Source: Terriglobales bacterium (lineage in GTDB: Bacteria; Acidobacteriota; Terriglobia; Terriglobales; Acidobacteriaceae). Taken from it: a DNA stretch of 64,000 nt. Under the pieces are notes generated by a model. That model saw only the letters and a list, made by a program, of their open reading frames with translations, ran no database searches and was not told the origin of the DNA. Positions within the stretch are counted from its first letter, which is position 1; the number at the start of each line of letters is the position of its first letter. The translations under genes and the position numbers were made by a program. Of this stretch, positions 58,006-60,631 are shown piece after piece. The stretch lies in the NCBI GenBank assembly GCA_963762965.1, contig CAVXME010000001.1, forward strand, positions 1,314,328-1,378,327, in the 5' to 3' direction.

Positions 58006-60631
58006 TTGTCGTTCCTCGATAAACTCAACCCGCAGCAACGCGAAGCCGTCGAAACCATCGATGGCCCCGTGCTCATCCTGGCCGGCGCGGGCAGCGGAAA
58101 AACACGCGTCATCACCTATCGCATTGCCCATCTGATCGAACATCTTGGAGTCATGCCGGAATCCATCCTCGCGGTTACCTTCACCAACAAGGCCGCATCC
58201 GAGATGGTCGAACGCGTGGAAAAAATCGTCGGCGGCCTGTCCATCGCCAAGCCATCCATCGCCACGTTCCATTCTTTTTGCGTGCGGGTGCTGCGCCGCG
58301 ATATTGAAGCTCTGCGTATTCCGTCGTCCGTGCCCGGCCAGCCGCCTATCGGCCACAGCAAAAGTTTTGTCATCTATGACGAGTCCGACCAGCAGAGTGT
58401 CGTCAAATCCATCATGCGCCGCCTCGGCATCGACGACAAACAGACCACGCCGCGCTCCGTCCTGGGACACATTTCCTGGGCCAAGAACCACATGCTTAAT
58501 CCCCAGGAAGTTTTTCTGCAATCCGGCGATCCCAAGACTGAACGCGTCGCCCAGATTTACGCCGAATATACAAAAGAGTTGCTGCAAGGCCAACGCGTTC
58601 GATTTCGACGACTCTGTTGCTCGATGCCGTCCGCCTGCTGAAAGCCGTGCCGGAAGTCCGCGATTACTACACGCGTCGTTATCAGTATGTTCTGGTCGAC
58701 GAATATCAGGACACCAATCGCCCGCAATATGAGCTGATGCGCCTGCTCGCGGGCACTCGCCACAATGTTTGTGCGGTCGGTGACGAAGACCAGTCCATTT
58801 ATTCCTGGCGCGGTGCGGACATTCGCAACATTCTGGAGTTCGAAAAAGATTTTCCCGAAGCCAAGATTATTCGCTTGGAACAGAACTATCGTTCCACTCA
58901 AAATATTCTTCAAGGCGCGTCTGCGGTCGTTCCAACAATATCAAGCGCAAAGGCAAGAATCTTTGGACAGTCCGTCAAGGCGGTACGAAAATCGGATATT
59001 ACGAAGCGCCCGATGGCGAGAACGAAGCGCTTTTTGCTGCCGATTACATCGCTAAATTTCTGCGCGAAGCCGTCGAGCGGGGCGAAAACTCACGCGCCGC
59101 CGTGCTCTACCGTACCAACTCGCAATCGCGTTTGTTTGAAGAGGCCATGCGCCGTTACCAGTTGAAATATCACGTGGTCGGAGGCTTCTCGTTCTACGAA
59201 CGCGCCGAGATCAAGGACATGATCTCGTACCTGAAAGTCATCCATAACCCGGACGACACCATCTCGCTCCTGCGCGTGATCAATACCCCAGTGCGCGGCA
59301 TCGGCAAAAGCACCATCGAAATCCTCGAACGCCTGTCACTCGAAACCGGGCTTTCTTTGTGGGGCGGGATACAGGAAGCCATCAAGCGCCAGCTCCTGCC
59401 GCAGCGGGCGTTGGCAGCACTTAAATCTTTCCGCGACATTATTGAAGATGGACGCGCCATGCTCGCCGGAACGATTGAGGATCGCCTGGAAGCCTCCGCA
59501 AGAATCGAAGACAATGAAACAGACGTAGCGCCCGCCATTCTAGTCGCCGAGGAAGACACGGATTTCAGCCCCGACAACTTCAGCTTTGACTTCCATACTG
59601 AAGTCGAACCGTCCGACGAAGCCGCGGCTCCAGTCGTATCACCTGCAGCTGAAGAATCGTCAGAAGCCCCCGCATTCCGCACTCCCGGCGACGCAGCCAA
59701 CACCGCCGAACTCCTGAAATTTCTGATCGACCGCACCCGCTATATCAAGCGGCTAGAAGACGAAGACACGCCGGAAGCTTTCTCCCGCGTAGAAAATCTT
59801 CGCGAATTAGTGAACGCCGCCATGGACTCCAAAGACCGTGGCGAAACCCTCGATCAATTCCTCGATCACGCCGCCCTGGTCAGTGATGCCGATTCCTACG
59901 AAGAAGGCGCGCAGATCACACTGATGACGCTGCACGCCGCCAAAGGCCTGGAATTTCCGCTCGTATTTCTTGCCGGCCTTGAAGAAGGATTGTTCCCGCA
60001 CTCCCGAACATTCTTGCAGCCGGATGACATCGAAGAAGAACGCCGCCTGTGCTACGTAGGCATGACCCGCGCCATGGACACGCTCATCCTCACCCGCGCC
60101 GTCTACCGCCGCCGCTACGGCACCGATCTGCCGGAGGCCAGCGTGCCGTCGCGATTCCTCGAAGAAGTTCCCGCGGAATTATTGGAAGAACTGGGGACGT
60201 CCCGTCGAACCAGCAGTGGCCATGTGGGGACGGGCGCTCTCGCCCGTCCAGCGGGGCAAAGCCACGCGGCTTACGACGCCGAGCCCCACTACGCCTACGA
60301 AGACGAAGACCAAAGCCCACGCTGGGACACTCGCAACAAACCGCGCACCCCGGTCGTGCAGCCCTCCGGCCCGACTTACAACTCCATCGGCAACATCGCC
60401 GAGTTTTTTGCCTCCCGCGGCAAGAAATTCACCCTGCCAAAATTGGCCCCCGAAGCGCCCAAAGGCAAGCAAGGCTTCCGCCCTGGCCAGAAGGTAAAGC
60501 ACCCCAAATATGGCGAAGGCACCGTCTATCAGCGAGAAGGAGACGGTGAAGATGCCAAAATTACGGTACAATTCCCTCGCTTCGGTTTAAAGAAATTAGT
60601 AGAGAAGTACGCCCAGCTGGAACGGGCCTAA
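58006..60631 (+). pseudogene. pcrA: ATP-dependent DNA helicase PcrA/UvrD family, reading frame interrupted by three 1-nt indels
   Basis: Helicase motifs are spread over three ORFs and, in reading order, four frame segments over three distinct frames. 58006.. carries AGAGSGKT and VTFTNKAA. A short +1-frame stretch carries ANAFDFDD. 58617.. carries VLVDEYQDTN and GDEDQSIYSWRGA..LEQNYRS. 59102.. carries VLYRTN, LMTLHAAKGLEF and YVGMTRA. The junctions are at ~58588, ~58613 and ~58931. Helicase identity is high confidence. Whether the breaks are biological or assembly errors is open. Confidence 0.8.

Follow-up and report, generated by a model that had tools for sequence, protein, structure and literature searches.

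Within the window (the whole 64-kb stretch of DNA that was analysed), a gene encoding a DNA helicase of the PcrA/UvrD type is interrupted by three single-base shifts of its reading frame, and we became interested in whether these breaks are present in the bacterium or arose when its genome was assembled. We favor the second explanation and assign a probability of about 0.8 to the three breaks being mixed-strain consensus errors of the assembly, as opposed to mutations in a living cell. The soil bacterium itself thus probably possesses an intact helicase gene. Of the options raised in a preliminary description of the locus, which included a very recent pseudogene, the takeover of the function by a paralogue and an assembly of locally poor quality, it is the last that is favored by the open frame of wild alleles, the union of allelic bases at two of the sites and purifying selection on the unbroken frame.

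A PcrA/UvrD-family helicase with three frame breaks

The gene has the following location:

58006-60631, forward strand: gene for an SF1A DNA helicase of the pcrA/uvrD type, with ~874 codons if read through, in frames 1, 2, 3 and 2

Its translation begins in frame 1 with a TTG codon at 58006 and extends to ...AEYTKELLQ, in a frame that subsequently runs into a stop at 58641. It continues in frame 2 with the short piece ANAFDFDD, in frame 3 with LLLDAVRLLK...GASAVV, which corresponds to LLLDAVRLLKAVPEVRDYY...VLVDEYQDTN...VGDEDQSIYSWRGA...QNYRSTQNILQGASAVV, and again in frame 2 with SNNIKRKGKNLW... up to the stop at 60631. This succession of frames confirms the initial observation, in which three breaks of one base each had been placed within 350 bp of a helicase that is complete in other respects, and the read-through length of about 874 residues and the presence of the helicase motifs, both noted at that stage, are equally borne out by the translations and by Pfam. 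The translated pieces contain the sequences AGAGSGKT, TFTNKAA, VLVDEYQDTN (with DEYQD as motif II), VGDEDQSIYSWRGA, QNYRST and VGMTRA, and with the Walker A sequence GSGKT and motifs II, III, IV and VI all found, the protein shows the motifs of an SF1A helicase. In the pieces of the window, the Pfam domain PF00580 (UvrD-helicase) is matched at positions 1-180 (E = 2e-49) and 191-271 (E = 1e-33), followed by PF13361 (UvrD_C, E = 2e-63), which is the domain order of PcrA/UvrD, and by the PcrA/UvrD tudor domain PF21196 at residues 519-561 of the C-terminal piece (E = 4e-10). This C-terminal tudor domain of PcrA/UvrD proteins binds RNA polymerase.

The organization resembles that of PcrA from G. 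stearothermophilus and UvrD from E. coli, which likewise contain an N-terminal UvrD-helicase domain, UvrD_C, a C-terminal tudor domain and all SF1 motifs. Unlike these proteins, the helicase of the window contains an acidic insertion of about 100 amino acids in the 2B/C-terminal region (residues ~500-600), and its gene is frame-broken in the deposited sequence. In the intact orthologue of a close strain (L081, introduced below), PF00580 is matched over 1-271 and PF13361 over 1-347. The top NCBIfam model of this orthologue is TIGR01073 (pcrA), with a score of 832.8 bits in two stretches that remains below the cut-off of 911.2 because of the acidic insertion, and we have therefore assigned the gene to the PcrA/UvrD family without choosing PcrA over UvrD. 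No pcrA/uvrD paralogue was found within the 64-kb window.

Comparison with intact alleles, including the two termed A and B that are described below, defines the sites as follows:

Site 1, 58583-58585, forward strand: surplus base; CTGCAAG in the window, CTG-AAG (L K) in allele A, C-GCAAG (R K) in allele B
Site 2, 58612-58614, forward strand: surplus base; GACTCTG in the window, GA-TCTG (GAT CTG) in allele A, GACT-TG (GAC TTG) in allele B
Site 3, 58931-58932, forward strand: missing base; GTT-CC in the window, GTTGCC, GTTGCG or GTGGCC (Val-Ala) in wild copies

The nature of each break had been recognized correctly from the window itself, with a surplus base at the first two sites and a missing one at the third, while the bases concerned have to be revised. 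At site 1, the surplus base is T58583 or C58585 instead of G58588, and the preceding peptide, read as ELLQ, is ELLK or ELRK in wild alleles. At site 2, it is C58612 or C58614 instead of T58613. At site 3, the absent base is not a T but a G following 58931, and wild alleles encode V-A and not V-S.

Wild copies of the gene are open at the break sites

We compared the gene with contigs of moss and soil metagenomes (runs designated by X, among them the five independent ones X1/X2, X3, X4, X5 and X6), which contain up to 64% of its 31-mers. In X1 (identical to X2), X3, X5 and X6, the frame is open at all three sites in each contig that spans them. The comparison with X4 and X9 concerns site 3, where both are open; the single contig of X4 near sites 1 and 2 starts at 58613. 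The G of site 3 follows 58930/58931 in all contigs of X1, X3, X4, X5, X6 and X9. Contigs from close strains, 95-98.7% identical to the window, were included in the comparison:

L081, NCBI GCA_049587355.1, contig JBAVDT010000219.1: open at all three sites, encoding an uninterrupted protein of 877 amino acids
L082, ENA ERZ25039473, contig_76395: open at all three sites
L087, ENA ERZ12293632, scaffold_45991_c1: open N-terminal part of 554 amino acids across all three sites

None of the three indels of the window is carried by any contig of the indexed runs or by any related contig that we compared. Likewise, the 31-mers of the window across sites 1 and 2 (58505-58720) are found in no indexed public run, with the best run containing 2 of 20 words, both outside the sites; over 46001-56000, the best public run contains a fraction of 0.81 of the words of the window. 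Reads restoring a single frame had been named in advance as the sign of an assembly error, and such a frame is restored at all three sites in the contigs of other samples, as distinct from the source sample's own reads. The sequence surrounding the breaks does occur elsewhere: a low-depth contig of run X20 equals the window exactly over 58400-58557, from which we conclude that the backbone haplotype of the window is real and that any errors would be confined to few columns.

The two surplus bases combine the alleles of two strains

The breaks are located in a segment where the strains of the population differ strongly:

58431-59092, forward strand: divergent-allele segment, with deeply divergent alleles in co-occurring strains and flanks that are nearly identical between strains

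In the part containing site 3, the divergence of one of the alleles of X1 reaches 14%, with 41 differences over 299 nt. Over 58431-58829, the same metagenome contains two alleles together, A at a depth of 25.8 and B at a depth of 35.6, and since both values sum up to the depth of the flanks (~50-60), they represent two strains at one locus. Both alleles, rebuilt from the table of differences in X1, translate without interruption (A: ...ELLKANAFDFDDLLLEAV...; B: ...ELRKANAFDFDDLLLEAV...). L081 and L082 carry A, and the allele of L087 is exactly B, which confirms both in assembled records. Among 283 sites, 34 distinguish the two alleles, and in exactly two places these differences concern adjacent bases (TG/GC and TC/CT), which are precisely the positions of the two surplus bases of the window:

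Site 1, allele A: GAGTTGCTG-AAGG
Site 1, allele B: GAGTTGC-GCAAGG
Site 1, window: GAGTTGCTGCAAGG
Site 2, allele A: GA-TCTGTT
Site 2, allele B: GACT-TGTT
Site 2, window: GACTCTGTT

At both sites, the window is a superstring of A and B, which yields A if one base is dropped and B if its neighbor is dropped instead. Enumeration of all distinct single-base insertions into either allele revealed this property in 4 out of 847 cases, so that two random insertions would both be of this union type with a probability of ~2e-5. The variants of both strains are thus contained in the sequence at sites 1 and 2 and not at site 3, which corresponds to neither the union nor the intersection of any observed pair of alleles. 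Directly on either side of each union site, the window is B-like and shows no visible exchange tract.

Two further possibilities regarding this segment were considered and discarded. Site 3 could be described as the intersection of GTTGCC with a hypothetical GTGTCC, but the latter is absent from X1, X4, X5, X9 and the related loci. The idea that the whole haplotype 58431-58829, with its few private changes, is chimeric between A and B site by site was abandoned in view of the match of X20 over 58400-58557.

A process that could generate this pattern would start from a long-read metagenome-assembled genome (MAG) of an uncultured Terriglobales/Acidobacteriaceae population, from which the window most likely originates. 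A contig of more than 1 Mb, on which the neighboring gene for 53 amino acids is found, points to long reads in the case of an uncultured soil acidobacterium, and many of the related genomes are MAGs of long-read style. Co-occurring strains carry very different, albeit intact, alleles in the pcrA segment 58431-59092. A difference in adjacent bases, such as TG versus GC or TC versus CT, may then be aligned as one insertion and one deletion, and a pile-up or POA consensus obtained from mixed reads could keep the insertion while rejecting the deletion, presumably during polishing. As a consequence, the bases of both alleles would come to stand side by side, with a gain of one base as found at sites 1 and 2. 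The plain deletion of one base at site 3 is probably an ordinary consensus error within the same heterogeneous segment.

In the literature, strains of ~98.65% identity are described to be merged by the assembler Flye into a single consensus (PMC8302730), and frameshift errors in gene calling are attributed to indels in the consensus of Nanopore assemblies (PMC9262707). The window shares with strain-collapsed metagenome assemblies from Nanopore or PacBio data that single-base indels break a conserved gene only where strains differ, that the bases of both alleles are found adjacent to each other, that the surroundings are clean and that all short-read contigs from the same population are open. 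It differs from them in showing only three events in one gene instead of dozens, and in that one of its three breaks is a plain deletion without the union signature.

High consensus quality outside the pcrA gene

To place the breaks in context, contigs of four independent runs were compared with the window over 1-20000, 20001-40000 and 40001-58000. Throughout positions 1-58000, wild contigs show between zero and a few differences per kb, with stretches of kilobases that do not contain any, and a 12.5-kb contig of X4 differs from the window at 6 positions over 10,165 nt. For nearly all indels found in these contigs, at least one further run agrees with the window instead. The initial impression that other core genes are free of comparable breaks is therefore sustained, as the private indels over 1-58000 number only two, at 27789 and 57133, which are both non-coding. 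The second of these is located as follows:

57133, non-coding, upstream of rpmB: extra G in a run of G (GGGG versus GGG), absent from X3, X4, X5, L081 and L082

This extra G is probably another small consensus error. At 27789, the window contains 6 bases that are absent in all four metagenomes, within a stop-rich non-coding stretch with repeats resembling GCTAGC/AGCTAG, which reflects either a variant in repeat length or a consensus error.

Two more frameshifts had been suspected in the accessory part of the window, in a gene for an ArsR protein and in the remnant of a HIT gene. The former (52181-52364) has no indel listed at a depth of ~58x in X3, and the latter (54962-55131) shows no indel relative to the gap-free contigs of X3 and X4 that cover the site. 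As judged from these contigs, both sequences are real features of the population, unlike the breaks in pcrA. The errors are thus local to the patch of greatest divergence between strains, as a strain-collapse artefact predicts. Counting against a consensus error is the fact that other strain-variable patches, such as the one at 24498-24623, are free of such errors.

The latter patch of ~130 nt is hypervariable. The version common to X1 and X3 differs from the window by dozens of substitutions, together with several indels of 1 nt that compensate each other, X4 equals the window exactly, and arrays of heptamers were noted nearby in the preliminary description. The patch represents either a segment that has been replaced or an element of the repeat type.

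Substitutions follow the uninterrupted reading frame

A four-way alignment of the window with L081, L082 and L087 reveals 23 substitutions in the gene that are private to the window. With respect to the uninterrupted frame, 20 of them are located at the third codon position, two at the first and one at the second. The 15 private changes downstream of site 3 (59284-60523) are all at third or first positions, and between the breaks the differences from A and B keep to the third positions of the local, shifted frame. An even distribution of private substitutions over codon positions, as sign of relaxed selection, was not seen in this set, and the bias towards third positions implies that the allele of the window remained a functional gene throughout practically its whole private history. 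In mutation-accumulation studies of bacteria, base substitutions normally exceed indels about tenfold. A real pseudogene that has acquired three indels should for this reason display many changes at first and second positions, which are not observed.

The gene is also conserved in a broader context. Among 80 species-representative relatives (MAGs of Terriglobales/Acidobacteriaceae with 66-76% amino acid identity to the C-terminal query), 77 loci hold the whole gene and 76 of these encode it in a single frame, L008 being the exception. The comparison with orthologues of relatives, which had been proposed at the outset, thus speaks for an intact gene. The other broken copies, in L008 and, at a different position, in L082, come from assemblies with names of the type 'contig_N', which suggest long-read assemblies, whereas none of the short-read MAGs with k141 or k127 names is broken.

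Alternative explanations

The most serious alternative, although unlikely, is that the gene is a real and very recent pseudogene, which has acquired three independent one-base indels while an SF1 helicase encoded elsewhere might compensate for its loss. Several observations are compatible with this possibility: the indels are located outside long homopolymers and are thus not classic homopolymer miscalls, the consensus of the remaining window is of high quality, and the backbone haplotype has a natural counterpart over 58400-58557. They are outweighed by the absence of each of the three indels from any wild copy and by the coincidence of two of them with the sole two adjacent-base differences between A and B, where the bases of both alleles are reproduced (p ~2e-5). 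The predominance of third-position changes (20 of 23) despite three indels and the integrity of the gene in 76 of 77 related species argue in the same direction. Moreover, the divergence between the window and the strain of X4 amounts to ~1% in the pcrA region compared to 0.06% elsewhere, a contrast that the decay of a pseudogene cannot produce, while allelic mixing or recombination can. With open wild copies, a union pattern and no relaxed selection, the suggestion of a recent pseudogene made in the preliminary description is disfavored.

Genuine mutator pseudogenes of the uvrD/mutS type in natural isolates are likewise repair genes with frameshifts. The lesions of the window differ from these in being found in no conspecific copy and in the lack of visible relaxation of selection. 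Moreover, neither private indels nor private substitutions are in excess over the other 58 kb. A mutator scenario, in which the loss of uvrD would have raised the indel rate, was rejected, as private indels that break a frame are absent from the 58-kb flank and private substitutions relative to X4 are very rare there (6 in 10,165 nt).

Considerably less probable is a scenario where the indels are physically real, a lineage of free-living soil acidobacteria has just lost PcrA/UvrD and the union-type insertions were made in vivo by recombination between alleles that are 12% diverged. As for the recombination step itself, double mismatches in a heteroduplex of A and B would slip into one-base bulges that are both retained by repair, and we regard frameshifts of this origin as highly improbable. 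The union pattern at both sites would fit this explanation equally well as an alignment artefact, and recombination has clearly made the locus a mosaic within the population. Yet its product would be a dead core gene that is found in no other sample, site 3 would be left unexplained, and the window returns to a B-like sequence at once on both sides of each site with no exchange tract visible. To our knowledge, there is no precedent for repair that keeps both bulged bases. If the indels were nevertheless real, they would define a natural mechanism by which frameshifts emerge from homeologous recombination.

Programmed recoding by two +1 and one -1 ribosomal frameshifts, which would restore the full-length 874-residue helicase from frames that are sufficiently stop-free, can be practically dismissed, given that none of the sites shows a slippery heptamer or a known +1 motif and that orthologues and conspecific alleles encode the protein in one frame, and we know of no precedent for three recoding events within 350 nt.

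Consequences for annotation

If the breaks are mixed-strain consensus errors, they are of little consequence for the biology of the organism, whose helicase is almost certainly intact. Their effect would be on annotation, where a species-representative genome would show a pseudogene or three or four open reading frames and thereby wrongly imply the loss of a core helicase of repair and replication. Given two intact conspecific alleles, the union-of-alleles signature offers a diagnostic to distinguish a consensus artefact from a true frameshift that does not require reads.

Allelic mosaic at the pcrA locus

Irrespective of the origin of the breaks, the pcrA locus is a strong mosaic of alleles, which includes the segment 58431-59092 and additionally 58059-58267 and 59500-59700. 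Strains that are identical across many kilobases of the flanks have pcrA segments that are 5-14% divergent, with almost all differences being synonymous, and at least three pcrA alleles are found in one moss metagenome. This mosaic suggests frequent import by recombination at the gene.

The break in L082 mentioned above is a different single-base interruption of pcrA, an extra A at 4858-5076 of its contig (corresponding to about 59529 of the window), which is located inside a divergent segment of its own and probably reflects an assembly error of the same kind in a sister assembly.

Directly upstream of pcrA, the structure of the spacer at 57950-58003 varies by strain, with L081 carrying an insertion of 11 nt and a deletion of 13 nt, and at 57860-57947, several runs have contigs that terminate or become divergent. 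A breakpoint between strains thus adjoins the cluster of breaks.
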